The notes beneath the pieces are model-generated. The model was not told the origin of the DNA. It was given only the letters and a program-made list of their open reading frames with translations, and ran no database searches. Shown here in pieces: positions 4,754-24,320 of a stretch of DNA of 32,000 nucleotides. Numbering within the stretch: position 1 is the stretch's first letter; each line of letters begins with the position of its first letter. A program made the translations under genes and the position numbers. The stretch lies in NCBI RefSeq assembly GCF_000179635.2, contig NC_014833.1, positions 1,200,001-1,232,000 on the forward strand. Direction: 5' to 3'. Origin of the DNA: Ruminococcus albus 7 = DSM 20455 (GTDB taxonomy: Bacteria > Bacillota > Clostridia > Oscillospirales > Ruminococcaceae).

Positions 4754-4800
4754 TTTAAAAATACCTCCATTTTTCTGACCTGTGTATAGTCACAGTAATG

Positions 4801-4829
4801 ATTATAACACATTATTAATCGAATGTAAA
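4801..4829 (-). promoter_or_regulatory. Sigma-A-type promoter for the GH9 gene
   Basis: Minus strand reads TTTACA - 17 nt - TATAAT, with an extended -10 (TGTTATAAT). It lies ~45 nt upstream of the ATG at 4753. Confidence 0.5.
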
Positions 4830-4992
4830 GCGGCTGATATGTATTTTTTTCAGGATTATTTGTGATGATGACAGCAAAAGTACGATAATATGAAATATAC
4901 AATATGCAATACAACGTATATGATATATAAGTGAAATTTGTGCTGAATATGAAAATATTATATTTATTATATTGATCATATGTTATTTTTGA

Positions 4993-5021
4993 TTGACTTT
5001 TTTTCTGCTTTGCTGTATAAT
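4993..5021 (+). promoter_or_regulatory. Sigma-A-type promoter preceding a ~335-nt leader of the GGDEF-EAL gene
   Basis: TTGACT (4993-4998) - 17 nt - TATAAT (5016-5021). Confidence 0.55.
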
Positions 5022-5362
5022 AGTATAGGGTATGTAAGCCTGATATAAATGTGGTGGTAAAGTTCTGTGTCAGGATATGGGTGAAATATTTTCAGATAAT
5101 GATGCATAGGGAAGTGATAGTAATGATTCTTCAGGAGTTGGCAGACAGTTTTTCTACTATGACCTGTATCGTATCCGTCAAGTACAATGTCGGAAGATAT
5201 GGTGATGTAAACAAAGTTCCAGTAAACAACGGTTCCCGCGGTATTATGACAGGGAAAATGTTTAAGACCAGAGGCTTTAATATGGAACACCAAGAAAGAA
5301 AACACGGATAGGAGAATTTAAAAAACAGCAAAAATATCGTGGATTTTATCGAGGTGTACACA

Positions 5363-7099
5363 ATGAAACATGAAAATAAGGCTACAAATAATTTACAGAA
5401 TACGCTGGAGGATCTTTCGGGAGGCAAAAAAGCATCCAAAAGTCTCTTTGTGTTATTGCTCATATCGTATATAGGGGTATCGCTGATAGTAAGTATGTCA
5501 GCAGGGTCACATAAGGTGATGAATGTCGCAGGTACTGAAATAGGTATGTATGCTTTTGCAGGTGTGTTCTCGGCACTGGTGAACATACTGGCTATATTCA
5601 TGGCGGTGTATTTCAAGAAAGTGGGATTCATATCAGCCATCGTTCTGACCGGGCTGCAGTTTCCATCGCTTTTGGTCGGAATATTCAAGCATGATAATCT
5701 GCAGAGTCTGCCCGGGGTGTTTACGAATGTCCTTACGATAATCGCTTTGCTGATAATATACATAAATAATGTGAGGATAGAGCGCTTTCAGGAAAAGATA
5801 AGGGATCAGGCAGTAACGGACAGGCTTACTGGTCTGCCGAACAGATTTGCCTGCCGTGAGCTGGTAGACTCTCTGTTGAAACAGAATGAAAGATTTGCGG
5901 TGGTGTCAATAGATCTGAATAATTTCAAAAGCATCAATGACACTATGGGACATGAAAACGGCAACAAGGTACTTGTGACCATAGCTGAAAGATGGAAAGC
6001 TTTGGCAGAAAGCGGAGAAACTGGTACTCTGGATTTTGTGACCAGACAGGGCGATGATGAATTCACCCTGATAATACGAGGCTACTATTACGAGAAAGAC
6101 ATAGCTGCTACGATAAAGCTTTATCGTGAACGGCTAGAAAAAAAGATAACCATAGATGACTGTGATTTCTATATAAGGGGAAGCTTCGGCTATGCCTTTT
6201 ATCCCAATGATACGGATAATATAGATCATCTGTTTACTTATGCCGATGCTGCTATGCATGAGGTCAAAAGGCTCAACAGCAGCGAATGCATACTCAGATT
6301 CTTCAAGGAACAGCTCAAGCTGGAACGCACCCTGGATATCGAGCGCAAGATAAGAAAAGCACTGGATGATGATTCAATATTCTTTGAACTGCAGCCGCAG
6401 TATGATATGTCATACCAACTGCGCGGATTTGAAGCACTGGCACGAATGAAGGATGCAGACGGTAATGATATAAAACCATCAGAATTTATCCCCGTGGCTG
6501 AAAAGGTAGGGCTGGTAGACAAGGTGGATCTTTGTGTGTTCAGGCAGTCAGCAAAATTTTTCGGTGAGCTTGTAAGGAAAACGGGTGCCAATATCACACT
6601 GAGTATAAATATCTCCGTCAGACACCTGATGAAGAACGATTTTCTTGATGAAGTCATTTCGATAATAACATCAAGCGGTATCCCTGCAGGGCAGCTGGAG
6701 ATAGAGATAACAGAATCGGTGCTTATAGATTCGGCAGAAAAGGCTCTCCAGTGCATAAACGAGATCAAGAAGATGGGCATAAAGATAGCCATAGATGATT
6801 TTGGTACGGGCTATTCTTCGCTCAGCTATCTTTACAATTTCCCTGCAGATCTTCTGAAGGTCGATAAGTCGTTCATCGACAATATGAATACCAACAGATC
6901 TTCAAAGCAGTATGTAGCAGCTATAATCTCCATCGGTCATATCATGAAATACGATGTTATCTCAGAAGGCGTTGAAAAGGAAGACCAGCTTGAGACCCTT
7001 AAAGAGATCGGATGCGATTACATACAGGGCTTCATCTGGGGCAGACCGCTTTCAATGGTGGAAGCCGAAAATATCGTTATGAGCGAAGTGTGCAAATAA
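5363..7099 (+). CDS. Membrane-bound GGDEF(degenerate)-EAL protein, predicted c-di-GMP phosphodiesterase
   Basis: N-terminal multi-TM region. GGDEF-domain start is RLTGLPNRF, but the active-site motif reads GDDEF (6050-6064). The EAL domain is intact: GFEALAR (EAL at 6431-6439), DDFGTGYSSLSYL, KVDKSF, EGVE, QGF. I prefer the ATG at 5363 (GAGGTG RBS 7 nt upstream) over the ORF-track GTG at 5339. Confidence 0.88.
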   Translation: MKHENKATNNLQNTLEDLSGGKKASKSLFVLLLISYIGVSLIVSMSAGSHKVMNVAGTEIGMYAFAGVFSALVNILAIFMAVYFKKVGFISAIVLTGLQFPSLLVGIFKHDNLQSLPGVFTNVLTIIALLIIYINNVRIERFQEKIRDQAVTDRLTGLPNRFACRELVDSLLKQNERFAVVSIDLNNFKSINDTMGHENGNKVLVTIAERWKALAESGETGTLDFVTRQGDDEFTLIIRGYYYEKDIAATIKLYRERLEKKITIDDCDFYIRGSFGYAFYPNDTDNIDHLFTYADAAMHEVKRLNSSECILRFFKEQLKLERTLDIERKIRKALDDDSIFFELQPQYDMSYQLRGFEALARMKDADGNDIKPSEFIPVAEKVGLVDKVDLCVFRQSAKFFGELVRKTGANITLSINISVRHLMKNDFLDEVISIITSSGIPAGQLEIEITESVLIDSAEKALQCINEIKKMGIKIAIDDFGTGYSSLSYLYNFPADLLKVDKSFIDNMNTNRSSKQYVAAIISIGHIMKYDVISEGVEKEDQLETLKEIGCDYIQGFIWGRPLSMVEAENIVMSEVCK

Positions 7100-12243: not shown

Positions 12244-15200
12244 TTATGCCTTTCGGACTGCCTCTTTGTCAAGACGTTTGTGTATGTTGTCGATATCCTC
12301 GGTAGTTCCGCCGCCCTCATCATCAGGTGCGCGGAATTCACCTTTTTCTACCAGCCGCAGAAAAGCATCAACAACATCTTCTGTCAGCTGGGTGCCTCTG
12401 ACTTCTTTCATGATAGATACAGCCTTATCGAAGTTCATTCGCTTTCGGTACGGTCTGTCAGAATACATGGCATCAAAGGTATCGGCAACTGCGATTATCT
12501 GTGCTACACGTGGTATCTCATCGCCCTTGAGTCCCTTGGGGTAGCCCTTGCCGTCTGGACGCTCATGGTGTGCCCCCGCACCTATGGCAAGCTCCGGCAT
12601 TATGCTGATATCTTTCAGCGTATTGTATCCAAGCGCAGAGTGTGATTTGATTATCTTGAACTCGTTATCGGTGAGTTTGCCGGGCTTGTTGAGCACCTCG
12701 GCAGGTACACCTACTTTGCCTATATCGTGCAGAAGGGCGATGTTGTAGTACTTCTCGATGGTTTCTTCGTCGAGCCCCAGCTCACGGGCAAGCATCATGG
12801 TGTATTCTGCTACGCGTGAGGAATGTCCGTTGGTGTATTTGTCCTTCATATCTATAACTTTAGCGAAGGCTTCGACTATCTCACGGATGAGCTGCTTCTG
12901 TTCTTTTTCCTTTTTGAGGAAACGCTCAGTCCTGCGGCCGATATAAAGCTTTATCAGCAGAACTATCACGGTGAGCATAACGGCAAGACATAGCAGCATG
13001 AACCAGATGTGTTCGTATATAGCCTTCTTTTTTATTATATTTATGACCTTCTCCTTGACTCCTGTTCCACTCGGATCCTTTATCTGCATAACAAAACGGT
13101 ATGTACCGCCGCGAAGATTGGTGTAATCCACAGGTGCAAGTTCGCTTCTCTTTACTGTGACAGGCTGTTTGTCAAAACCTTCAAGGCAGTAGGTTATCTG
13201 AGGATTTATAAGCGAATAGTTATAGGCGTAACTGTATATGGTGAGCTTTTTGACATTTGATGGTATAACGATGTTTCCGTTTTCATCGGGATATATCATT
13301 TCTCCGTCAGCCTCAGCGTAGGGAACTGAGAGCTTTATGCGGTTGACATCGTTAAATTCCTTTTCTATGTTGACCTTAGCCACACCTGTTGTGCCTGAGA
13401 TATACAGGTCTCCGTCTGCGGTAAGCTCGCTGTATGAATTTGAAGTAGTTATGCAGTGAAGACCGTTGTCCCTTCCGTAATATATCGGAGAGATATCTTC
13501 GTTGGCGAGCAGAGTATCTACATCTTCAACGTATACGCCGTTGCTGCTTAGTATCCACATATCGCCGCGGCTGTTTTCGTACAGGTCGAAATTGTTTGAA
13601 TATGGGAATTTTCTTATGGTGGTGATATTGTAGTCAGCATCCATGTATGCCAGGGAATTGCTGGTAACTATCCAATATATCTCCTTCGTTCTGTCCTTCT
13701 TGATACGCATGATGACATCTGAGTTAAGCCCGTCATCAATGCCAAGATGGGTGGTCGAGCTTTCATCTATGACGAATATCCCTCCGCCGTCTGTGCCGAG
13801 TATGATATCACCGTTTTCGGCTGAGGCGGCTGTAAGTATCTCGGTATTGCTTATGCCGTCGCTCTCGTCGTATACCTTGGTGATCTTATCATCCTTTATT
13901 ATCGCTGCACCGCCTGTGTATATTGCGATGAATGATCCGTCTGCCCTTTCGATAACTGTTCTGACGCGGCTTGATGGAAGACCGTCTTTTTCTGTGAATT
14001 TAATCAGCTTGCCCTTGTCGTACCGAAGAAGTCCCTGTTCACCGAAGGTGGAGAACCAGAGCCTGTTTTTGCTGTCACGTATTATCGAGCGTATCTTGCA
14101 GCCCTGCAGCAGCCTGATAAGATCGCTGTCATTGAATATTTCACCCGAAGCACTTCTCGATGATGTAATGGGAAGTGTATCCACTTTTTTTCCGTTTGTA
14201 AGTACCAGCAGTCCGCTGTTCTTTGTGCCGATGAACAGCTTTCCGTCTGTCGCACAGGTGGAGTATACTACCTCTGTATCCAGCTTGTATTTTTCAAAAA
14301 TATCAGTGAACTGATTGGGTACTATCTTCATGACTCCCTGCTGTGAGGATACGAACCACAGGTTTTTCTGATAGTCGGTCATCATGCCTTCGACAGAGTT
14401 GTTGAATGGGGTATTCTCTATCTGTGTGAACTTTCCGTTTTCCACAAAGCCTATGCCGCTGTCAGTGCATACCCACAGCATATCACCGGTGGCAGACATT
14501 GAATTGATATATCCCAGCGGTGATATATCTGTAGGTGATACATTACTGAATCCTTTTTCAAGCTCGCCGTGATATATCTCCGAACCCTTTGTGCCGACGT
14601 ATATATACCCTGCACGCAAAGGGTCGGGGAGTATTGTATGTATATCCTCGACTCCCAGCTTTTCAGCATCACAGAAGCTTTTAAGCCTTTTATCCTTTAG
14701 TGTGAACACTGCACCGTCCAGAGTAATACCGTATATTATACCGTCTATGCCTTTTTCAAGCATACGTATATACTCATTGTTCAGCTGGGGTTCATCTATG
14801 ATCGTCAGATCACCGTTTGTATCTATAAGTGCTGCACCCTGTGTAGTACCGAGATATATGTTGCCGTCGCTATCCTCTGCAATAGAGCGAATCGACAGTG
14901 AACGCAGACCATTGTCCTTGTTGTACATCTTGAATGTTCCGTTTTCCATAACAGCAGCACCGCTGTCATTGGTTCCTATCCACAATCTGTCCTTTGAATC
15001 TACGAATAGCTTCACAACGCTGGCTATACCTGTTGTTGAATCTATACGCTCGAAGGTATTGCCGTCATATCGTATAAGTCCGCTGTAGCTGCCTATCCAG
15101 ATAAATCCCTCGCTGGTCTCGACGATATCATTTGCTTCCGAAGTTGGAAGCCCCGAGGTGTTGTCGTACAGCACTGCCGAATAACCGTCGCCTTTGCCTG

Positions 15201-15354
15201 TCGGGTCTACTGAAAGTTCTTCTGCGGGAGAAAGTGCATCACCGCCGGTGTGCAGAACTACAGTGGACGGTACAGCTGTCAGCATCAATGCAGAAGCTAT
15301 AATACAAAGCATTTTTTTTGATATACTTTTTATCACGCTGGATATGATCTTCAT
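12244..15354 (-). CDS. Transmembrane sensor: extracytoplasmic two-component-regulator propeller repeats + Y_Y_Y-like module, one TM helix, cytoplasmic HD-GYP domain (c-di-GMP phosphodiesterase)
   Basis: N-terminal signal/anchor. Repeated propeller blades are visible (IWIGSYSGLIRYDG, LWIGTNDSGAAVMENG, LWFSTFGEQGLLRYDKG, MWILSSNGVYVEDV and others). TM helix is IWFMLLCLAVMLTVIVLLIKLYI (~12941-13012). HD-GYP motifs are LLHDIGK and HHERPDGKGYP (12538-12570). I prefer the ATG at 15354 (GGGGAGAG RBS 8 nt upstream) over the GTG at 15363. Confidence 0.88.
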   Translation of the reverse strand: MKIISSVIKSISKKMLCIIASALMLTAVPSTVVLHTGGDALSPAEELSVDPTGKGDGYSAVLYDNTSGLPTSEANDIVETSEGFIWIGSYSGLIRYDGNTFERIDSTTGIASVVKLFVDSKDRLWIGTNDSGAAVMENGTFKMYNKDNGLRSLSIRSIAEDSDGNIYLGTTQGAALIDTNGDLTIIDEPQLNNEYIRMLEKGIDGIIYGITLDGAVFTLKDKRLKSFCDAEKLGVEDIHTILPDPLRAGYIYVGTKGSEIYHGELEKGFSNVSPTDISPLGYINSMSATGDMLWVCTDSGIGFVENGKFTQIENTPFNNSVEGMMTDYQKNLWFVSSQQGVMKIVPNQFTDIFEKYKLDTEVVYSTCATDGKLFIGTKNSGLLVLTNGKKVDTLPITSSRSASGEIFNDSDLIRLLQGCKIRSIIRDSKNRLWFSTFGEQGLLRYDKGKLIKFTEKDGLPSSRVRTVIERADGSFIAIYTGGAAIIKDDKITKVYDESDGISNTEILTAASAENGDIILGTDGGGIFVIDESSTTHLGIDDGLNSDVIMRIKKDRTKEIYWIVTSNSLAYMDADYNITTIRKFPYSNNFDLYENSRGDMWILSSNGVYVEDVDTLLANEDISPIYYGRDNGLHCITTSNSYSELTADGDLYISGTTGVAKVNIEKEFNDVNRIKLSVPYAEADGEMIYPDENGNIVIPSNVKKLTIYSYAYNYSLINPQITYCLEGFDKQPVTVKRSELAPVDYTNLRGGTYRFVMQIKDPSGTGVKEKVINIIKKKAIYEHIWFMLLCLAVMLTVIVLLIKLYIGRRTERFLKKEKEQKQLIREIVEAFAKVIDMKDKYTNGHSSRVAEYTMMLARELGLDEETIEKYYNIALLHDIGKVGVPAEVLNKPGKLTDNEFKIIKSHSALGYNTLKDISIMPELAIGAGAHHERPDGKGYPKGLKGDEIPRVAQIIAVADTFDAMYSDRPYRKRMNFDKAVSIMKEVRGTQLTEDVVDAFLRLVEKGEFRAPDDEGGGTTEDIDNIHKRLDKEAVRKA

Positions 15355-15495
15355 TATGCTCACTCTCCCCGGTGATACTGACAGCAGTTGCTTATATGTT
15401 GGAATGCGATATTTACCTGTTGTCAGGATCTGTATAAGTACTATCCGACTTATGACTATGATTTTTCCTTAATTTTACTGTTTTGTTATTTATAT

Positions 15496-16721
15496 TTACT
15501 TAATACAGAGTACATGAATTATTTATATATATGATATCACATTCTCATGTATATTGTCAATAGTATAAATACAAAAATCACCCTCGAAATCATCTGCGGC
15601 TCCATAAGACATTCAAACATAAGTTTGGATATGGCGGCTTTAGAATTGTTCCGATTTTTAAAGTTCTTGATTAAATTTATCGCAGCTTTTCTGAACATAT
15701 TCAGGCATTGCTGAACGTCTTTGTTTTCGACTCTGCACCAATCTTCTTCAAAATGAACATCAAGCAGCCAGTGCATTGACTCAACCGACCATTCCATTCT
15801 TGCATGATGAAGGAGCTGTTCCGCTGTCATTTCGCGGCTTGAAAGGTAATAGTGCCATTCGCTCGAAGTGCCTTTTTTCGTTGAAAACTCAGTATGAATG
15901 GCTCCTATGCACTTCAGATTTTTCCACTCTTTTTTCTGTTCCAGCCAGTTGATATCTGTTGTTACATACGCTGTCCTTGTTTCAACTCTGCCACGGTTTT
16001 TCTCCGTTCTTGAAACTGTTTGCATAGTGTCTCTGAGAGAACTGTCCTGCACATAATCCTCGATATCTTTCTTCAAATTTGGGTGATTATCCTTAACGCA
16101 AAGCAGATAATCTGCCTTTTGTTTTACGATAATCTCAGCAGTTTCTTTCTGACAGTTCAGTGCATCCGCAACAACTATATTACCCTTTATTTTCAGTTCT
16201 TTCAGAAGCTCCTGCACCGCAGGTATCTCGTTGCTTTTATCGTCCGTGCTGCGTTGTGCCAGGGTCAATCCAAGTTCGCATACCTGTGCGCTGATGATGT
16301 GCAGAGGACTTTCGATCTTACTCATTTTAAGTGTCGAACAAACAGTTTTCCCGTCAAGAGAGATCGTCATACTTTTGGACTTTTCGGGCATGAATGAATA
16401 GACCCAATCCGCAAAACAGCGGTTGAGCGATTCGGGCTTGACATATTTCAGCAGGCTCAATATCCAATAATAGCAAGGGACATGATCGATTCCGAATTTC
16501 TCCTTTAAGAATTCGCTTACTCTGTCATTTGTCGCCCATTGATGAATCTGATGAATGTTTCTAAGTCCACAGATACTTCCAAGAATTGCTATTGTAATGA
16601 TATCGGGGATACTGCAAAAATAGCCGTCATATTCCTCATATAATTCAATATCTTCAAAATACTCGGTTATTCCATTATTCATGCCTATATTATATCATTT
16701 TCCAGGTGCTCTGTCCAGTAA
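15496..16721 (-). mobile_element. ISAs1-family insertion sequence (boundaries tentative)
   Basis: One intact ISAs1-type transposase gene. It is flanked by weak imperfect terminal inverted repeats: TTACT-taat-ACAGAGTAC (15496-15513) and the reverse complement of 16706-16721, TTACT-gg-ACAGAGCAC. The ~1.2-kb size fits the family. I could not identify a target-site duplication. Confidence 0.5.
15537..16682 (-). CDS. ISAs1-family transposase (DDE_Tnp_1 with N-terminal associated domain)
   Basis: 381 aa. Family-typical blocks are IPDIITIAILGSICG, ISLDGKTVCST, VVADALNCQKETAEIIV..ADYLLCVKDNHPNL and WSVESMHWLLDVHFEEDWCRV. Confidence 0.9.
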   Translation of the reverse strand: MNNGITEYFEDIELYEEYDGYFCSIPDIITIAILGSICGLRNIHQIHQWATNDRVSEFLKEKFGIDHVPCYYWILSLLKYVKPESLNRCFADWVYSFMPEKSKSMTISLDGKTVCSTLKMSKIESPLHIISAQVCELGLTLAQRSTDDKSNEIPAVQELLKELKIKGNIVVADALNCQKETAEIIVKQKADYLLCVKDNHPNLKKDIEDYVQDSSLRDTMQTVSRTEKNRGRVETRTAYVTTDINWLEQKKEWKNLKCIGAIHTEFSTKKGTSSEWHYYLSSREMTAEQLLHHARMEWSVESMHWLLDVHFEEDWCRVENKDVQQCLNMFRKAAINLIKNFKNRNNSKAAISKLMFECLMEPQMISRVIFVFILLTIYMRM

Positions 16722-16842: not shown

Positions 16843-16878
16843 CACCCGCTCGTCTTGATGTACGCAAGAGAGCGGGTG
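16843..16878 (-). terminator. Terminator hairpin after the heptad-repeat gene
   Basis: CACCCGCTC...GAGCGGGTG with an extended imperfect inner stem. On the minus strand it is followed by a T-rich stretch (CTCTTTATTATT). Confidence 0.5.
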
Positions 16879-16932: not shown

Positions 16933-19900
16933 TCAGTCATTCTTTTTGTCTGCAGAAACCGGTGCAGTCTCGTATATGAACTTGACTTCGCCCTTAGTGT
17001 CTGCTGCTTTACCCGAGAAATTATCGTAAGCCTTGCCTGCTGCCTTTATTGCATCAAGTCTGTCCAGCAGGGGAGTGATATCATCGTTGTAAGCGTTGAT
17101 TATCTTGTCGATGCCCTCGCGGCGGAATTTCTTCATGCCGTTGTTGAGTTCTTTTGCACCGTCTTCAAGTTTCTGAGAACCGTCTTTCAGCTTTGCGGCT
17201 CCGTCATCGAGGGTAGTTATACCTGCATAAAGGGTGCCGCTGCCGTTGGAGAGCTTTTCAGCGCCCTCTAAAAGCTGTGCACTGCCTGTGGATACACTGT
17301 AAGTACCGTCTTTTAGTGTCTGTCCGCCCTGCCAGATAAGTCCCAGACCGTCATCGAGTGCAAGAGCACCGTCTGAAAGCTGTGTAAGTCCGCCCTGTAA
17401 TGAGCCTATGCCTGTATCCAGCTGTACAGCGCCGTTGCGTGCCGCTGCTATGCCGTCGGCAAGGGAATGTGCGCCGCCCGAAACTTTCTTAGCACCGTCG
17501 GAAACTGCTGTGCTGCCGTCAGCCAGCTGTCCTGCTCCTGCTACAAGCTCGGTCACTCTTGAAGCCAGCGTGCCTGTACCTGCCTTGAGCTTTTCTCCGC
17601 CATCGGTCAGCTGACCAAGACCGTCATCGAGCTTTGATGCGCCGTCTGAAAGCTGACCAAGTCCGCCGTTAAGCTTGCCTGCACCAGCATCAAGAGCAGC
17701 CGCACCTGTATTTGCGGAGTTAAGTCCTGTTGAAAGGGCAGCAGCGCCTTCGCTGAGTGAGCCTGCGCCTGTTGCCAGAGCCTTGATACCCTCGTAAAGG
17801 GAAGTAGTACCTGTATCAATGGCTGCGATGCCGTTGAAAAGTGTGTCTGCGCCGACTCTGAGTTCGCCAGAGCCGAATGACAGCTTGCCCAGACCCTCGT
17901 CAAGGGCTGAAGCGCCTGCACTGACCTGTTCTAAACCTGCCTTCAATGCCCCTGCTCCGCTGTCAACGCTCTTGGCCCCTGCGGAAGCGGTAGTCAGTCC
18001 CTTGGAGAGTGAACCTGTACCTTCGGAAAGTGAGTTAGCACCTGTCAGAAGCTCGCTGCTTCCTGCTTTCAGTCCTGCCGCACCGTTTGATACCTGTGCA
18101 GCACCGTTAGCCAGAGTTTTTGAACTTGTATAGAGTTTGCCTGCACCTGCCGCCAAAGCCTTGCCGCCCTCATCGAGAGTTGCCAGCCCTGTATCGAGAG
18201 CCTGAGCACCTTCTACCAGTGCAGCGGCACCTGTTTTCAGGTCTGCGATACCGCCTGTGAGCGCTGAAGTATCTGCCGATATCTGAGAAGAACCCTCAGC
18301 CAGACCTGCGGCTATCTGCTCCTGAGATGCGATAGTCTGCTGTAAAGTGCCTATCATGGCGGCTATGTCATCAGAGGGGTTAGAGGCATATACCTGCTGT
18401 AATCCTGCCAGCACCTGTTTGTTGTATTCTATGGTAGAGTTAAGGCTGTCTGCGGCATTTGTCATAGAAGCCGAAACACCATTCAGCTTTTCGGGGATAG
18501 CTGCTGCACCGCCGGCTAGAGTATCTATACCGCCTGCCAGTGCCTGTGCTCCTGCAAGCACCTTTTCGGAACCTGCCTTTGAGGAAGTTATGCCTGCCGA
18601 AAGTTTACCGGCTGATGTGCTGAGTGAACCTGCGCCTGTGGAAAGCTGTGTAGAGCCTGCCGCTACGTTAGCCGCTCCCGAATCAAGAGTTGCCGCTCCT
18701 TCAGCCAGAGCCTTTGAACCGCTTGCGACTTTCTTTGCACCGCTGTGAACGTCTGCTGCGCCCTTATCGGCAGAGCCTATGCCCTCAGCCAGTTTTGCTG
18801 TGCCTGATTTGAGTTCGCTTGCGCCGTTTTTTAGCTGTGAAGTTGCGTCTTTCAGTTTTTCAGAACCTTCCTTGGCTGACTTGATCCCGTCATCAAGAGT
18901 TTTAGCACCGTCAGCCAGACCCTTTGCGCCAGCCTTTGCCGATGATGTACCGTCTTTGAGAGTCTTTGCACCTGCGGCGGCGGTGTCAGCACCGTCTTTG
19001 AGTTTGTCAGCGCCGTCTTTCAGTTTCGCCGCACCCTCATCTGCATCTGCAATACCTGCCGCCAGCTGTGCTGTGCCTGCTTTCAGGTTTGCCGCACCGG
19101 AATTTACCTGTATGAAACCACCCACCAGCTGTGCAGAACCTTTCTTTGCCGCCTTTATGCCGTCAAGCAGGGACTTTGCGCCATCATCGAGAGTTTTTGT
19201 ACCCTCAGCCAGTGCGCCCGAACCACCTGCAACTTTCTGTATGCCGTCATTGAGTTTGCTTGCTCCGTCTGCAAGAGAAGCCGCACCCTCATCGAGGGTC
19301 TTTGCGCCTGTGTCTGCATCGCCCAGACCGTTTGCCAGCTTTGCAGAACCGTCTTTCAGCTGTGCAGCACCGTCATTTACCTGTATGAAACCGCCGGCTA
19401 GCTTGCTGCTGCCGTCCTTTGCGTTTTTTATACCGTTTACCAGGTCGCCTGCACCGCTGTCGAGGGTCTTTGTGCCGTCAGCGAGTTTCCCTGCGCCGTC
19501 AGCCAGAGATACAGCGCCGTCGTTCAGCTGCTTGCCGCCGTCAGCCAGCTTATCTGCACCGTCTTTCAGATCTCCAACACCCTTGTTGAGTTCCTTTGTG
19601 CCGTCATAAAGCTGTTGTGAGCCGTCAGAAAGCTGATCTACTGCATCAGCAAGTTCGCCAAGCTTTTCTTCCAGTTCATCGAGCTTGTCGATACCGTCAA
19701 AGTCTATATCATTGAAGAATGAGTTAGTTCCTGCAGTGAATACTGTTTTCAATTCAAAATCTGTAACATCGGCAGTGAATTCAAAATACTCGGGTATGCC
19801 GATGTCGCTTTCATCATCAAGCCCAAGACTTTCTTTCAGTCCCGGCAGGGCATAGCCGATGACAGCCTGTCTGCCGCCGTCGGAGATCAGCTTACCGTTA

Positions 19901-20583
19901 GTCACACTGATATTACTGAACTTTTCACTGTCCAGCAGTGCACCTGTTGCCATAAGGAACGGGGTATAGATCGTTTCGTTCTTTCCGTTTATCTTTACTG
20001 TGGAAGTCGAATTGTTTGTATAATCGTACCTTACAGTGACCTTGCCGCTTTTGCCTGCCAGTTCCTCGGGAGTGATGCTTTTGCCGTCAAGGGTGTAGCT
20101 GACTTTTATATCAACAGGCAAAGCTGCATCTGTGTAGCCCTTGTAGTATACATCTCCGCCTGATGTGTTCCACTGCATATTATCTCCGCTGCCTGAGAAG
20201 GTATCATCGTTCTTCATATTTTCTATATCGGTAAGAGTGGATATATCCATAAGCGAAGTGAGTCCCTGAGGATTAACAAGATGGTCACTCACCACAGTCT
20301 TTGTCGGAGCGCCGTTTGCATCGGTCAGTACGTAAACAGTTTCCTCTTTGCGTGCAGTATTGCTGTCGGCGGTCTTTGTATCTTCTGTTTTCTTCTTGTC
20401 ATGCTTTTTTATCTCGGGCGACTTGTGATCATCGTCAGCTTCGGAACTGTCTTTATCCGAAGTCTTTGAGGAACTGTCATTTGCGGATGTATCGTCCTTG
20501 TTTGCAACTGCGTAAAATCCTGTTGAGCCTGCCGATATCAGTACTGCCAGGACACCTGCTAAAAATCTGCTGTATTTTTTCAT
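16933..20583 (-). CDS. Secreted/N-terminally anchored giant xxxLxxG heptad-repeat protein (YhgE/Pip- and EsaA-like repeat type, but no C-terminal membrane domain)
   Basis: 1216 aa with an AAGGAGAG RBS. N-terminus is MKKYSRFLAGVLAVLISAGSTGFYAVA, then a K/D/S-rich spacer and a ~200-aa globular region. About 850 aa then follow in a strict 7-residue register (DKLADGG KQLNDGA VSLADGA GKLADGT KTLDSGA ...). The C-terminus is hydrophilic. Confidence 0.85.
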   Translation of the reverse strand: MKKYSRFLAGVLAVLISAGSTGFYAVANKDDTSANDSSSKTSDKDSSEADDDHKSPEIKKHDKKKTEDTKTADSNTARKEETVYVLTDANGAPTKTVVSDHLVNPQGLTSLMDISTLTDIENMKNDDTFSGSGDNMQWNTSGGDVYYKGYTDAALPVDIKVSYTLDGKSITPEELAGKSGKVTVRYDYTNNSTSTVKINGKNETIYTPFLMATGALLDSEKFSNISVTNGKLISDGGRQAVIGYALPGLKESLGLDDESDIGIPEYFEFTADVTDFELKTVFTAGTNSFFNDIDFDGIDKLDELEEKLGELADAVDQLSDGSQQLYDGTKELNKGVGDLKDGADKLADGGKQLNDGAVSLADGAGKLADGTKTLDSGAGDLVNGIKNAKDGSSKLAGGFIQVNDGAAQLKDGSAKLANGLGDADTGAKTLDEGAASLADGASKLNDGIQKVAGGSGALAEGTKTLDDGAKSLLDGIKAAKKGSAQLVGGFIQVNSGAANLKAGTAQLAAGIADADEGAAKLKDGADKLKDGADTAAAGAKTLKDGTSSAKAGAKGLADGAKTLDDGIKSAKEGSEKLKDATSQLKNGASELKSGTAKLAEGIGSADKGAADVHSGAKKVASGSKALAEGAATLDSGAANVAAGSTQLSTGAGSLSTSAGKLSAGITSSKAGSEKVLAGAQALAGGIDTLAGGAAAIPEKLNGVSASMTNAADSLNSTIEYNKQVLAGLQQVYASNPSDDIAAMIGTLQQTIASQEQIAAGLAEGSSQISADTSALTGGIADLKTGAAALVEGAQALDTGLATLDEGGKALAAGAGKLYTSSKTLANGAAQVSNGAAGLKAGSSELLTGANSLSEGTGSLSKGLTTASAGAKSVDSGAGALKAGLEQVSAGASALDEGLGKLSFGSGELRVGADTLFNGIAAIDTGTTSLYEGIKALATGAGSLSEGAAALSTGLNSANTGAAALDAGAGKLNGGLGQLSDGASKLDDGLGQLTDGGEKLKAGTGTLASRVTELVAGAGQLADGSTAVSDGAKKVSGGAHSLADGIAAARNGAVQLDTGIGSLQGGLTQLSDGALALDDGLGLIWQGGQTLKDGTYSVSTGSAQLLEGAEKLSNGSGTLYAGITTLDDGAAKLKDGSQKLEDGAKELNNGMKKFRREGIDKIINAYNDDITPLLDRLDAIKAAGKAYDNFSGKAADTKGEVKFIYETAPVSADKKND
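17130..19690 (-). repeat. Coding heptad (21-nt) repeat array with 273-nt super-repeats
   Basis: Period-7 pattern of Leu and Gly across roughly 100-120 heptads (hand estimate: ~850 aa / 7). An identical 18-mer, ATTTACCTGTATGAAACC, occurs at 19102 and 19375, exactly 273 nt apart. Confidence 0.8.
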
Positions 20584-20611
20584 AATGATCTCTCCTTATC
20601 TATTCAACTAT

Positions 20612-22723
20612 TCAACTGTTCAGTGAGGGGACTTTGAAAGCTTTTTCCCTTCTTGCTGTATCCTTCATGCCTATTGTGCTGTTGATTATCACCTTATCAA
20701 AAAGCAGCAGCATGGATGGGAGTGCACATATTACCGTTACCATTGATACCAGCGCACCTCTGGACATCAGTGTGCAGAGCTGTGATATCATATCTACGCT
20801 GGAGTATACACCGACACCGAAGGTCGATGCAAAGAAGCCCAGTGCGCTTACCATAATGGATTTCATCGAGGTAGCTAATGCTATGGTCACGGCTTCGGTC
20901 TTGTCCTTGCCGTCTATACGTTCCTGCTTGTATCTTGTGGTCATTAGTATAGCATAGTCAACAGTGGCGCCCAGCTGTATGGTGCCTATTACTACAGATG
21001 CTATAAAAGGTATCTTGGTATGTGTGAAGCAGGGAACTGCCATATTTACGGTTATTGCGAATTCTATCACTGCAACGAGTATCATAGGCAGAGATACCGA
21101 TCTCAGCGCGAAAAGTATGATTATGAATATTGCTGCTATGGATACCGTGTTTACAACTGCGAAGTCACGTTTTGTTATACTGATAAGATCCTTTGTTGCG
21201 GCAGCCTCACCTATTACCATGCCGTTGTCATCATACTTTTTGAGTATATCTATGAGTTCATCTACCTGTGCGTTGACTTCGGGGGATGCTACCTTGTAAT
21301 CAGAGCCTACCAGCATCAGCTGCCAGCCGCCCTCTTTCAGAAGACCGCTCACCGATTCGGGGATAGCTTCTTCGGGGATGGACGGACCTATAAGAGTATC
21401 GAATGCCATAGTCATGCTGACACCGTCCACCTTTTTCATCTCATCAGTCATACTGATAACATCACTGCGCTTCATATCAGCGCTGCACAGTATCATGTGG
21501 GTTGAGGTTATATTGAACTCATCCTGAAGCTTGGTGTTTGCGATCACGCTGTTCAGATCAGTGGGGAGCGTGTCTGTCAGGTTGTAGTAAACATCTGTAT
21601 GGGTCTGTCCGTAAATACCCGGTATCAGCAGGGCTATGAACAGTACAACGAATACAGTGTGATGCTTTACTATAAAAGAAGCGGCTTTGTCCATGCTGGG
21701 GATAATATCCTTGTGTATGGTCTTTTCGAGCAGCTTATCAAAGACGAGTATCATTGAGGGCAGTACAGTCACACAGCATATAACGCCGATGACAACACCC
21801 TTAGCCATAACTATGCCCATGTCAAGACCCAGTGTATAACTCATGAAGCACAGTGCCAGGAATCCTGCAACTGTAGTTACCGAACTTGATACTACAGAGG
21901 AGATGGTCTGTGCTATGGCTTCAGCCATGGCTTCGTATTTGTCGGAGAAATTCTCTTTTTGTTCCTTGTAGCTGTGCCACAGGAATATTGAGTAGTCTAT
22001 CGTTACCGCCAGCTGTAAAACAGCTGTCAGCGCCTGTGTGATGAAGCTTATCTGTCCGAGGAATATGTTGGTTCCAAGATTGTAAAGTATCGCAAGACCA
22101 ACGCTAAGCATAAAGAATACAGGTATCAGCAGAGAATCCATAGTCACCGCAAGTATGATGCTTGTAAGAAGTACCGCTATTCCGACGTATGCGGTGGTCT
22201 CTTTCATCGTCAGGTCTTTAATGTCTTCAACTATGGCGGTCATGCCGTTTATGAAACACTGCTTGCCTGCTATCTTTCTCATCTCAACTACCGCTTCAAG
22301 GGATTCGTCAGCAGAAGTGGCTTGATTGAAGAACACAGCCATCATTGTGGCACTGCCGTCCTCATTGTTGAAGAAACTGTAGATGTCCTCAGGGAGTATC
22401 TCTTTTGGTATGGATATATCAGCTATACTGTCATACCAAAGCACATCACTGACAGCATCTATTTTTTCAAATTCGGATTTAAGTGCTGCAACATCCTTGT
22501 CCTCCATGCCTTCTACAACTACAAAGGCGAAACCGCCTTTACCGTATTCGTCAAGCATTATCTGCTGACCTTTCATCGTGTCGATATCTTCGGGAAGATA
22601 AGAGAGTATGTCGTAGTTTATCCTAGTTTTCAGCATACCTATCGCCGCGGGCACCGCAAGCACCAATGCCAGTATGACGATGAGTATACGCAGTCTGACA
22701 ACTGCTTTACCGAAGTTTTTCAT
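20612..22723 (-). CDS. MMPL-family (RND-superfamily) membrane transporter
   Basis: 703 aa with two repeats of TM1, a large extracytoplasmic loop, then a 5-TM bundle. This is typical Gram-positive MMPL/YdfJ-like topology. Its stop is 28 nt upstream of the next ORF. Confidence 0.88.
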   Translation of the reverse strand: MKNFGKAVVRLRILIVILALVLAVPAAIGMLKTRINYDILSYLPEDIDTMKGQQIMLDEYGKGGFAFVVVEGMEDKDVAALKSEFEKIDAVSDVLWYDSIADISIPKEILPEDIYSFFNNEDGSATMMAVFFNQATSADESLEAVVEMRKIAGKQCFINGMTAIVEDIKDLTMKETTAYVGIAVLLTSIILAVTMDSLLIPVFFMLSVGLAILYNLGTNIFLGQISFITQALTAVLQLAVTIDYSIFLWHSYKEQKENFSDKYEAMAEAIAQTISSVVSSSVTTVAGFLALCFMSYTLGLDMGIVMAKGVVIGVICCVTVLPSMILVFDKLLEKTIHKDIIPSMDKAASFIVKHHTVFVVLFIALLIPGIYGQTHTDVYYNLTDTLPTDLNSVIANTKLQDEFNITSTHMILCSADMKRSDVISMTDEMKKVDGVSMTMAFDTLIGPSIPEEAIPESVSGLLKEGGWQLMLVGSDYKVASPEVNAQVDELIDILKKYDDNGMVIGEAAATKDLISITKRDFAVVNTVSIAAIFIIILFALRSVSLPMILVAVIEFAITVNMAVPCFTHTKIPFIASVVIGTIQLGATVDYAILMTTRYKQERIDGKDKTEAVTIALATSMKSIMVSALGFFASTFGVGVYSSVDMISQLCTLMSRGALVSMVTVICALPSMLLLFDKVIINSTIGMKDTARREKAFKVPSLNS

Positions 22724-22748: not shown

Positions 22749-22765
22749 AATGACTCACGGTCATT
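22749..22765. promoter_or_regulatory. Operator site 1: perfect palindrome AATGAC-TCACG-GTCATT
   Basis: Read directly from the sequence. It lies just downstream of the predicted MMPL promoter -10 box (about +5 to +21). Confidence 0.6.
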
Positions 22766-22776
22766 TCTTTATATGT

Positions 22777-22805
22777 AGTATAGCACTAAAATGACCAACG
22801 GTCAA
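22777..22805 (-). promoter_or_regulatory. Sigma-A-type promoter of the MMPL/heptad-protein operon
   Basis: Minus strand reads TTGACC (22805-22800) - 17 nt - TATACT (22782-22777). Confidence 0.55.
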
Positions 22806-22812: not shown

Positions 22813-22829
22813 AATGACCTTTGGTCATA
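22813..22829. promoter_or_regulatory. Operator site 3: AATGAC-CTTTG-GTCATA
   Basis: 11/12 palindromic positions match. Confidence 0.5.
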
Positions 22830-22848: not shown

Positions 22849-22865
22849 AATGACTGTCAGTCATT
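22849..22865. promoter_or_regulatory. Operator site 4: perfect palindrome AATGAC-TGTCA-GTCATT (extends to 7+7 with 22848/22866)
   Basis: Read directly from the sequence. It lies 26 nt upstream of the -35 box of the plus-strand promoter. Confidence 0.6.
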
Positions 22866-22950: not shown

Positions 22951-23634
22951 ATGCTTGATAAGAATAATATTGAAAAACAGTTCAATATGGTAGCAGAGGA
23001 GTATGATATGAACCGCAGAAGATTCATACCCTGCTACGATGATTTCTATATAAACACGACGGCGCTTATCGCTGCTAATATTGATGCACCTGAACGTATC
23101 ATTGATCTTGGTACGGGTACAGGACTGCTTTCGGAACATTGGTACAGACATTTTTCTGGAGCAGAGTATATACTTACAGATATCGCAGAGGATATGCTTG
23201 AAGTGGCAAAGTGCAGGTTCAGCGGGCTTGAGGGCTTTTCGTATAAGGTTGCTGACTACCTGAAAGGTCTGCCTGATGTTTCTGCGGATACAGTTATATC
23301 AACGCTTTCCATACATCATCTGGAAGATGATGAAAAGCAGGTATTGTTCGGCAATATATACAATGCACTGCCCGATGGCGGTCTGTTTGTGAATTACGAT
23401 CAGTTCTGTGCAGTTGATGACAGACTCAGCCGCTGGTATGACCGCTTCTGGGAAGGTCAGCTGTATAACTCCGGTCTGACGGACAAGGATATCGCACTAT
23501 GGCAGGCGCGCAGAAAGCTCGATCGGGAATGCTCAGTCGAGCAGGAGATAAATATGCTGAGAAAAAGCGGTTTTTCTATGGTGGAATGTGTATATTCATA
23601 TCATAAATTCGCTGTTATAGCGGCGTTAAAATAA
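22951..23634 (+). CDS. Class I SAM-dependent methyltransferase
   Basis: 227 aa. SAM-binding motif I is IIDLGTGTGLL, with acidic loop LTDIAEDML and motif LSIHHL. An AAGAGGA RBS is present. Confidence 0.85.
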   Translation: MLDKNNIEKQFNMVAEEYDMNRRRFIPCYDDFYINTTALIAANIDAPERIIDLGTGTGLLSEHWYRHFSGAEYILTDIAEDMLEVAKCRFSGLEGFSYKVADYLKGLPDVSADTVISTLSIHHLEDDEKQVLFGNIYNALPDGGLFVNYDQFCAVDDRLSRWYDRFWEGQLYNSGLTDKDIALWQARRKLDRECSVEQEINMLRKSGFSMVECVYSYHKFAVIAALK

Positions 23635-23708: not shown

Positions 23709-24320
23709 ATGGGAAAGCTGGATATCAATAAAAAGGCCAAGGAGGATTCTCTGCTTGCCACTGCATATAAGCTGTTCACAACAAACGGTGTCAGCAAGAC
23801 CTCGGTATCCGATATAGCCAAGAGTGCTGGGGTGGCAAAGGGTACTTTCTACCTTTATTTTAAAGATAAGTACGATCTTAAAAACAGACTGGTGGCACAT
23901 CAGTCTTCAAAGTTGTTCAGTAATGCGATCTCAGCACTGGAGGCTGAAAGCAAAGAAATGTCTTTCAATGAAAAGATCATTTTCGTTATAGACAATATTC
24001 TCGACCAGTTGGAGGGCAATCATGCCATGGTGGCATTCATCGCTAAAAACCTGAGCTGGGGAGTGTTCAAACACGCTGTCACTTCACCTTCAAAGGGCGA
24101 TAATATGGATCTGCGTGCAATATACGATGCTATACTTGCTGATGCACCTGACAGCATAACAGAACCTGAGATCATGCTTTTCATGATAGTTGAACTGGTA
24201 AGCTCTACCTGTCATTCTGCTATACTTTACGGTGAACCAGTCAGCCTTGAAAAGCTTAAACCCTATGTTTACCGCAGTGTCAACGATATCATCAACAGGC
24301 ATATCTCGGCAGATAACTGA
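23709..24320 (+). CDS. TetR/AcrR-family transcriptional regulator
   Basis: 203 aa. The N-terminal HTH is LLATAYKLFTTNGVSKTSVSDIAKSAGVAKGTFYLYFKDKYDL. A GGAGGT RBS is present. No terminator lies in the 74-nt gap after the methyltransferase gene. Confidence 0.9.
   Translation: MGKLDINKKAKEDSLLATAYKLFTTNGVSKTSVSDIAKSAGVAKGTFYLYFKDKYDLKNRLVAHQSSKLFSNAISALEAESKEMSFNEKIIFVIDNILDQLEGNHAMVAFIAKNLSWGVFKHAVTSPSKGDNMDLRAIYDAILADAPDSITEPEIMLFMIVELVSSTCHSAILYGEPVSLEKLKPYVYRSVNDIINRHISADN

Follow-up and report, generated by a model that had tools for sequence, protein, structure and literature searches.

A two-gene module of Ruminococcus albus 7 and related Clostridia pairs an MMPL pump with a separately encoded xxxLxxG stalk protein

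MMPL pumps of the RND superfamily are already known, as are hairpin stalks built from xxxLxxG heptads and coiled-coil stalks that serve a pump either in cis, as in MmpL4 and MmpL5, or in trans, as in the adaptor proteins. It was not until 2025 that the tube formed by the MmpL5 coiled coil was recognised. The 196-aa antiparallel coiled coil of this pump was shown to be essential for efflux and was modelled as a trimeric six-helix tube of ~13 nm, which is clamped by MmpS5, a protein composed of a transmembrane (TM) helix and an Ig domain (PMC12501195). For EsaA, a "there and back again" extracellular stalk was proposed to span the cell wall (10.1101/2020.08.17.254201), and for monoderms it was shown that the adaptors YknX and Spr0693 of MacB-type pumps form hexameric assemblies very similar to MacA (PMC8277102). 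Moreover, FarE/FarR of Staphylococcus aureus is described as a TetR-regulated MMPL RND pump through which resistance to antimicrobial fatty acids can be induced. Once released by a membrane pump, lipophilic substrates still have to pass the 30–50 nm wall of a monoderm. The present analysis concerns a gene pair in a window of 32,000 nt from Ruminococcus albus 7 (= DSM 20455; NC_014833.1, positions 1,200,001 to 1,232,000), i.e., the whole stretch analysed, within which all positions below are numbered. The pair consists of an MMPL pump gene and the gene of a giant xxxLxxG stalk protein, and it is read here, with a confidence slightly on the favourable side, as a repressor-controlled two-component MMPL export system of monoderm Clostridia in which the stalk is supplied in trans. 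The module is notable for how widely it occurs, for a stalk whose length varies more than ten-fold in nature and for its extreme version in R. albus.

Both genes are encoded on the minus strand. The first (20612..22723) encodes the 703-aa MMPL/RND-superfamily transporter and the second (16933..20583) the 1216-aa stalk protein, which starts 28 nt further downstream behind the Shine-Dalgarno sequence AAGGAGAG (20590..20597, minus strand), located in the intergenic gap 6 nt 5' of the ATG. Related loci were compared for the 80 most similar of at least 564 relatives and, in addition, at five loci of two close metagenomic homologues. In all of these loci (85/85) an MMPL ORF (open reading frame) lies directly upstream of the stalk gene on the same strand, with a median length of 703 aa and E <1e-230 when the ORF is complete. 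The two ORFs overlap by 4 nt in 26 pairs and by 8 nt in 6 pairs, and no conserved third gene follows 3' of the stalk gene in the related loci.

The 703-aa protein is identical to ADU21587.1 / WP_013497765.1 of R. albus 7 by exact sequence match. It is a polytopic membrane protein to which PF03176 (Pfam) matches in two stretches and above the gathering score (E 8.6e-52, 176.6 bits vs a gathering score of 20.5). The NCBIfam models for MMPL, HAE3 and HpnN proteins, including TIGR00833 and TIGR00921, also match, with scores under their equivalog cutoffs. A crude hydropathy scan resolved 7 hydrophobic segments; 12 TM helices are expected for the MMPL family. In a sequence search of the PDB, the best matches were MmpL5 and MmpL4 (E ~2e-15). 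Both halves of the pump align to MmpL5, and in this alignment the 49 residues of aa 456-505 stand opposite the 261 residues 499-760 of MmpL5, which include its coiled-coil insertion. The pump does not carry the ~200-aa coiled-coil insertion in domain PD2 that characterises the cluster I proteins MmpL4/5 and is accordingly shorter (703 vs 964 aa), and as judged from the alignment the window MMPL corresponds to "MmpL5 minus coiled coil".

The stalk protein begins with a hydrophobic segment (aa 8-26; 20506..20562), which is its sole TM-like segment by the Kyte-Doolittle scale. The 21-residue hydrophobic N-terminus as a whole could be either a cleaved signal peptide or an uncleaved anchor. It is followed by a charged low-complexity spacer rich in D, K, S, E and T (aa 27-77; 20353..20505), evident from the translation and from a predicted local distance difference test score (pLDDT) below 50 at the start of the AlphaFold2 model, and by a beta-rich base domain (aa ~78-290; 19714..20352), which is modelled with pLDDT ~90 and by which the family is defined in homologue searches. 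This order of helix, spacer and globular part had been recognised in the original prediction, which was made from the sequence without database searches. Two helical arrays of heptads come next, arm 1 with 54 heptads (aa 318-695; 18499..19632) in register phase 3 and arm 2 with 56 heptads (aa 761-1152; 17128..18303) in register phase 5. They are separated by a tip, i.e., a helical non-heptad segment (aa 696-760; 18304..18498), which is delimited by the register break and by cross-locus comparison. The protein ends with a C-terminal return module (aa 1153-1216; 16936..17127) comprising a short helix, FRREGIDKII..., and the strand EVKFIYETAP. All of these coordinates refer to the minus strand. 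Over the whole protein, the Kyte-Doolittle scan revealed no C-terminal TM segment, the 19-residue hydropathy maximum past aa 40 being 1.1.

The heptads are of the type described by TIGR03057 (NCBIfam), which is defined by at least four tandem X-X-X-Leu-X-X-Gly heptads and matches the stalk protein in 20 stretches (255.4 bits vs a cutoff of 18.6, E 2e-78). With the leucine taken as position a, Leu occupies this position in 82 of the 110 heptads and Gly position d in 105 of 110, both far above chance, and position e is Ala, Ser, Ile, Leu or Thr. The 28 consecutive heptads counted by hand in the original prediction hold and belong to a first run of in fact 54. Its unbroken register of ~850 residues, in contrast, resolves into the two arrays, the second being shifted by two residues relative to the first across ~65 aa that lack the repeat. 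In the tip, the motif S.I.YN.QVLAGLQ..YA.NP.D...MI.TL.QTIA.Q.QI is common to the Ruminococcus-type relatives compared. Furthermore, both arms show a super-period of 91 residues, i.e., 13 heptads (offset-91 identity 0.31 and 0.26 vs means of 0.20 and 0.16), and arm lengths across the family group around 11-14, 23-30, about 40 and 54-60 heptads. Such a pattern is suggestive of arms that grow by matched blocks of ~13 heptads, which is roughly one superhelical turn of a coiled coil. Tandem Repeats Finder reported only five short 21-nt two-copy matches in the stalk gene; with so few repeats at the DNA level the array is not a recent amplification, and its regularity is kept by selection on the protein. 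Long shadow ORFs lie over the gene, some antisense (e.g., 18779-19609, plus strand, 276 aa; 18347-18748, plus strand) and one in another frame of the same strand (17607-17921, minus strand), and the GC content within 17607-19609 amounts to 52-55% vs 39-45% in the flanks. These are by-products of the Gly/Ala/Leu-rich repeat and represent neither genes nor foreign DNA.

Three independent lines of evidence support that the two arms form a helical hairpin that runs out and comes back. Their lengths are nearly equal and co-vary: among 237 distinct family proteins with 5-60 heptads, the Pearson correlation between the length of arm 1 and arm 2 is r 0.966 (not corrected for phylogeny), with arm pairs such as 11/8, 27/27, 40/41, 54/56 and 60/57 heptads. 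Tip length is uncorrelated with arm length in the family members. AlphaFold2 modelling of a 568-aa homologue, based on an 83-sequence alignment (pLDDT 78.8), gave a beta base (56-263), a helix (278-386), a short tip, a second helix (414-520) and, after a short helix, a C-terminal strand (552-561). For aa 61-1216 of the window protein the same order of parts was obtained, with the base and the terminal strand EVKFIYETAP at pLDDT ~90 and helical structure in between. As the only sheet in these models is that of the base and the terminal segment is a beta strand, the chain returns to its starting point. From the equality of the arms, their co-variation and the models, the stalk is thus concluded to be a there-and-back helical hairpin. 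At about 1.5 Å per residue the arms of the window protein have a length of ~57 nm, and with this topology the reach of the stalk is ~57 nm and not the 125 nm of a fibre of 850 residues in line. The very long fibre of the original prediction therefore stands as a long stalk but not as 850 residues in linear extension.

The protein belongs to a large family that has gone unnamed so far. With aa 1-332 as query, comprising the signal/anchor helix, the spacer, the base and the first heptads, 894 homologues were found, all of which are unnamed or go under "hypothetical" or "putative membrane protein". With the base domain alone as a profile, 5172 clusters (50% identity) were matched at E<=1e-3 and 2405 at the stricter E<=1e-30, and in all 150 matches listed the base domain starts within the first ~130 residues. 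Relatives occur in at least 564 species genomes (one genome per species scanned). The best match, in which the base domain is 87% identical, comes from R. albus KH2T6, and the labels of the 80 loci kept include Ruminococcus, Oscillospiraceae, Lachnospiraceae, Clostridium leptum, Roseburia and Acutalibacteraceae among others. Complete homologues have mostly 565-581 aa among the matches listed. Complete relatives of 551-1268 aa end in a hydrophilic FxxEGI...G.VKFIY.T motif, none of them with a C-terminal TM segment. The longest stalks (40-63 heptads per arm) were found only in Ruminococcus-labelled loci, with the exception of one labelled "Clostridia bacterium", and most other taxa have 8-30 heptads per arm, corresponding to 8-30 nm. 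The giant size is a Ruminococcus-specific expansion within a family that usually has 565-900 aa. The window protein has all the features of this family, i.e., the N-terminal anchor, the ETVYV... beta base, two matched xxxLxxG arms, the C-terminal FxxEGI...VKFIY strand and the location of its gene directly 3' of an MMPL gene.

Profile searches assigned no known function to the family. NCBIfam gave only the repeat model TIGR03057, and in Pfam searches with the stalk protein and five homologues only sub-threshold coiled-coil matches were obtained (Laminin_I, Synaptobrevin, ZapB, Mce4_CUP1 and DUF1664), which were rejected as compositional. Similarly, PDB searches with the single sequence and with a profile of the family alignment A2 returned sc-apCC-6, protein origami, chemoreceptors and Mce1F with weak E-values, reflecting generic heptad similarity. 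No wall-binding or adhesion module (SLH, LysM, SH3, carbohydrate-binding module (CBM), dockerin or sortase motif) was detected in the stalk protein with Pfam and NCBIfam, and the base domain corresponds to no curated family in these two databases. Some homologues carry the precomputed Pfam accessions PF28175 and PF28544, which are absent from the Pfam copy scanned; a very recent Pfam release may hold a model touching the stalk family. An exact-sequence look-up of the stalk protein gave no entry, and other assemblies call the same 1216-aa product. Full-text literature searches found no paper on this gene pairing or on the stalk family. As the protein falls into no family of known function, is not simply truncated and keeps its MMPL neighbour in the related loci, the original proposal that the architecture is split, with a long stalk working together with an MMPL exporter, holds. 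For thousands of "hypothetical proteins" this offers a handle for annotation.

The known systems close to this module include the mycobacterial MmpL4/5 with MmpS4/5, which are siderophore and drug exporters of MMPL cluster I. These pumps belong to the same superfamily as the window pump, extend an antiparallel coiled-coil hairpin into the envelope that is required for export, and work with a small accessory protein that places a TM anchor and a beta domain at the base of the coiled coil; a dedicated repressor stands over the operon, Rv0678 in mycobacteria and TetR here. However, the MmpL5 hairpin is an insertion in PD2 of the pump, whereas here the hairpin has a polypeptide of its own, together with a base and an anchor. 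Its heptads are of the xxxLxxG type with a near-invariant Gly rather than the Met-lined type I/II heptads of MmpL5, the arms comprise 385-392 aa instead of about 95 aa, and the host is a monoderm Clostridium and not an actinobacterium with a mycomembrane. The sequence similarity between the stalk and the MmpL4/5 coiled coil is marginal (bits ~15). The stalk protein is also no MmpS protein by the searches made, as it gave no Pfam match (PF05423) and no MmpS chain was among the listed Foldseek matches. Among short family members, 18/83 weakly match TIGR00833 and 35/83 the helical part of Mce (TIGR00996). In P0038 and P0054 the TIGR00833 match covers profile positions ~486-655, which is the coiled-coil insertion of actII/MmpL4-5-type pumps. 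These matches might reflect a common origin of the coiled coils used in envelope lipid transport, or nothing more than composition, and serve as a lead only; being weak, they were not accepted as homology of the stalks to the TIGR00833 coiled coil or to Mce.

With EsaA/YueB and YhgE/Pip, the stalk protein shares the TIGR03057 heptads, the N-terminal TM helix and an elongated stalk that runs there and back. Those proteins end in a multi-pass membrane domain, whereas the stalk family has none and a different, beta-type base. EsaA is encoded in ess loci, alongside the EssB, EssC and WXG100 genes, and has a beta domain as tip, while the stalk gene follows an MMPL gene and its product has a short helical turn as tip. 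The models for the N- and C-terminal domains of YhgE/Pip, TIGR03061 and TIGR03062, matched neither the window protein (E<=0.01) nor 10 relatives (E<=0.05), and they are not among the 25 most frequently matched families listed for 83 aligned relatives. The window protein has neither the C-terminal multi-pass membrane domain of YhgE/Pip nor the C-terminal TM helices of EsaA/YueB, and there is no type VII secretion system (T7SS) gene among the window ORFs scanned, the neighbours being MMPL, methyltransferase, TetR, CarB, an insertion sequence (IS) element and an HD-GYP sensor.

The adaptors of the AcrA/MacA type resemble the stalk protein in layout: they are membrane-tethered extracytoplasmic pump partners with an alpha-hairpin of variable length and beta domains, are encoded in the pump operon, often under TetR-family control, and occur also in monoderms. 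The stalk protein differs from them in that the pump gene comes first, the hairpin is far longer and the chain comes back to the base at its C-terminus as one strand. No HlyD-family match (lipoyl or beta-barrel domains) was obtained with Pfam or NCBIfam at E<=0.01, and no adaptor structure was among the 50 Foldseek matches listed for each model. For the 568-aa model, 11 Foldseek matches against the PDB reached E<=1e-3, and for the window model none did. The base of the 568-aa model matched AP-2 mu2 homology domains (E 1e-5, TM-score ~0.3) and its stalk matched hairpins of chemoreceptors and alpha-pore-forming toxins; no family assignment was drawn from the AP-2 mu2, chemoreceptor or toxin matches. 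The cytoplasmic hairpins of methyl-accepting chemotaxis proteins (MCPs) are likewise long antiparallel coiled coils and appear as weak profile and Foldseek matches, and their arms gain and lose heptads symmetrically across the family, as known from the MCP heptad classes. They are cytoplasmic signalling domains, however, with no relation to the stalk in function or location, and the likeness is one of coiled-coil geometry only.

A promoter-like site, TTGACC-17-TATACT with an extended TG, lies upstream of the MMPL gene (22777..22805, minus strand; promoter scan and sequence reading). A palindrome scan of the 227-bp region upstream of this gene revealed four operator-like palindromes of 13-15 bp with the consensus ATGAC-N5-GTCAT. 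These are (A)TGACCGTGAGTCA(T) just downstream of the -10 hexamer (22751..22763), where transcription presumably starts, TGACCGTTGGTCA lying across part of the -35 hexamer (22792..22804), (A)TGACCAAAGGTCA(T) (22815..22827) and (A)TGACTGACAGTCA(T) (22851..22863). Of 75 loci, 25 have the palindrome ahead of the MMPL gene, most of them in 2-5 copies, vs 0.019 per kb elsewhere in the loci, and those bearing it are largely Ruminococcus-type loci with a divergent TetR gene. In the window, a TetR-family regulator is encoded divergently from the MMPL operon (23709..24320, plus strand; PF00440 (TetR_N), E 5.9e-15). It is presumed to be the repressor that binds the palindromes, so that the adjacent TetR gene and the palindromes over the pump promoter give the layout of a TetR-repressed efflux operon with predicted binding. 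The regulator and the operator array, which did not form part of the pair as originally described, belong to the module. FarE/FarR is in this respect a functional template for one half of the module, since it likewise combines an MMPL pump of a Firmicute with a TetR-family regulator; farR is transcribed divergently from farE. The FarE/FarR abstracts name no stalk partner, and likeness in substrate or operator would be analogy. The putative operator ATGAC-N5-GTCAT moreover offers a route to the inducer and hence to the substrate.

The context of the regulator varies between lineages. In the window, a SAM-dependent methyltransferase gene (22951..23634, plus strand; Methyltransf_25, E 4.8e-14) is placed between the operator region and the TetR gene. 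In the other Ruminococcus loci, TetR is directly divergent from MMPL, and a TetR homologue is found ~2.3 kb from the start of the stalk gene in about 30 loci. Judged by this distance, the methyltransferase appears to be missing from the TetR-adjacent position in most related loci, and whether it belongs to the module is uncertain. In Oscillospiraceae-type loci (L001-L004, ~4500-5900; two contexts examined), a TetR gene on the same strand (TetR_C_8) and a DUF308 (HdeD-like) membrane gene precede the pair, and the DUF308 gene may be a lineage-specific third component.

The gene pair, the architecture and hairpin topology of the stalk protein, the lack of the in-cis coiled coil in the pump, the operator array and the wide distribution are regarded as shown, whereas docking of the base on the pump, the oligomeric state, a conduit role and the substrate are inferred. 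On the favoured reading, the first gene would provide a proton-driven 12-TM MMPL pump and the second its dedicated extracytoplasmic subunit. The N-terminal helix and the flexible charged linker would tether the base at the membrane, presumably on the periplasmic domains of MMPL. From the base a long helix would lead outwards to the small helical tip, an equally long helix would lead back, and the C-terminal strand would re-insert into the base. The heptads with Leu at a, Gly at d and a small residue at e would pack into a tight antiparallel coiled coil projecting through the thick wall and the capsule. In this way the stalk would supply in trans what the coiled coil supplies in cis to MmpL4/5 and what the alpha-hairpin adaptors give to RND and MacB pumps, acting as a track or, once oligomerised, as a tube that takes a lipophilic substrate away from the membrane. 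In the absence of inducer, TetR bound to the four ATGAC-N5-GTCAT operators would silence the operon. As to the substrate, one may guess at toxic long-chain fatty acids, bile-type amphiphiles or an envelope lipid by analogy to FarE/FarR and to MmpL/HpnN. In a more far-reaching version, which is regarded as doubtful, the partner would oligomerise on an MMPL trimer (or dimer) and give a tube or rail of several helices, up to ~57-65 nm long. This would be a modular, trans-encoded conduit resembling that of MmpL5 and the first wall-spanning duct of a Firmicute RND pump, its length adjusted in blocks of ~13 heptads (~13.5 nm) to the wall and capsule of the lineage. Taken together with its distribution, the module suggests that many Clostridia of gut and rumen, represented by at least 564 species genomes and about 5000 sequence clusters, in all of which the family is unannotated, solve the problem of wall crossing with a separately encoded stalk. 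It also provides a natural experiment, as stalk lengths from ~8 to ~65 nm occur at constant pump and base and can be related to envelope thickness and to export.

A number of points weigh against this reading. The link between MMPL and stalk consists of gene adjacency and overlapping reading frames, the adjacency having been established for the 80 most similar of at least 564 relatives and for five further loci. The TetR/operator arrangement is seen only in the Ruminococcus-type subset. The AlphaFold2 models are monomers with a low predicted TM-score (0.53 and 0.39), the window model contains several kinks of low confidence, and phylogeny may contribute to the uncorrected arm-length correlation. 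In the Foldseek searches the base domain matched no known adaptor, MmpS or EsaA fold, AP-2 mu2 being the best match. A stalk of 57 nm exceeds the typical wall and could serve another purpose. Finally, a core of Leu, Gly and Ala gives no obvious hydrophobic lumen, unlike the Met-lined tube of MmpL5, and the data would fit a channel-less hairpin or four-helix rod just as well. This last point leads to the main rival, according to which the stalk is a spacer, ruler or tether that partners MMPL and is not the path of transport: it would position or stabilise the pump, set the distance of wall or capsule layers or gate access, and the substrate would leave MMPL straight into the wall. Such a role would be served by a tightly packed two-helix rod, which the Leu/Gly/small core suits better than a lumen. 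It would also agree with the constancy of base, C-terminal module and MMPL across lineages whose stalk lengths differ more than ten-fold, apparently in multi-heptad blocks as judged from the 91-aa super-period of either arm. Moreover, for many MMPL pumps no need of a stalk is reported; MmpL3 lacks the PD2 insertion, and the FarE abstracts name no partner. However, in MmpL4/5, the nearest relatives of known structure, efflux itself depends on the coiled coil, and the stalk protein has a small helical tip and no detected SLH, LysM, SH3, CBM or sortase motif; the spacer role, though the main rival, is considered unlikely.

Two further explanations detach the stalk from the pump. If the protein were a surface fibre with an external role, e.g., as phage receptor, decoy or adhesin, its link to MMPL would be one of co-expression only. 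Other xxxLxxG stalks (Pip, YueB, EsaA/PIP-EF) do serve as phage receptors, the reach of 57 nm would put the tip beyond the wall, and tip and length are the most variable parts of the protein, as phage pressure predicts. Within the Ruminococcus group, though, the tip motif is conserved and not hypervariable, and the invariable adjacency in the loci compared together with the frequent 4-nt overlaps argues for a function shared with MMPL. Any use as phage receptor would, moreover, come second to a function for the host. As a whole this explanation is judged improbable; a phage-receptor role of the tip in addition to the host function is plausible, and with Pip, YueB and EsaA as analogues, phages of important fibre degraders of the rumen have a candidate receptor in the exposed tip. 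Adhesion to cellulose, which the original prediction had considered, was rejected, as the protein carries no adhesion or carbohydrate-binding domain, dockerin, SLH domain or sortase signal and the family is abundant in non-cellulolytic gut Clostridia (C. leptum, Roseburia, Oscillibacter/Oscillospiraceae-labelled taxa). The other explanation, a degraded or truncated member of the YhgE/Pip or EsaA/YueB proteins that lost its C-terminal membrane domain, e.g., through an IS element, could draw on the shared TIGR03057 repeat and N-terminal hydrophobic helix and on the gene of an ISAs1 transposase 250 bp downstream of the stalk gene. It is effectively refuted: TIGR03061 and TIGR03062 are absent as described above, the hydrophilic C-terminal module is kept in all complete homologues, the window ORFs scanned include no T7SS gene, the IS comes after a terminator-like hairpin, and R. 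albus KH2T6 has the same protein (1215 aa) without an IS, which also speaks against IS-mediated truncation as such.

The terminator-like hairpin, CACCCGCTCTCTTG-cgtacat-CAAGACGAGCGGGTG followed by a T-rich tail (16843..16878, minus strand), was read directly from the sequence and was not flagged by a simple scan, probably owing to a bulge in its stem; it marks the end of the two-gene operon. The ISAs1-family transposase (15537-16682, minus strand; NF033564, E 4.9e-85) lies between this terminator and a sensor gene (12244-15363, minus strand), which encodes a 1039-aa membrane protein with Reg_prop beta-propeller repeats, Y_Y_Y and a C-terminal HD domain of the HD-GYP type, as identified by domain matches. 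In KH2T6 a same-strand ORF of 1039 aa follows the stalk gene after 413 bp. As this is the length of the window sensor, the window IS represents a strain-specific insertion without any loss. By its domains, the sensor is probably a c-di-GMP phosphodiesterase. A GGDEF-EAL protein is encoded further away (5339-7099, plus strand), and a GH5 cellulase with fn3 (246-1949, plus strand) is convergent with a CBM4_9-CelD_N-GH9 cellulase (2030-4753, minus strand), which is typical fibre-degradation content of R. albus.

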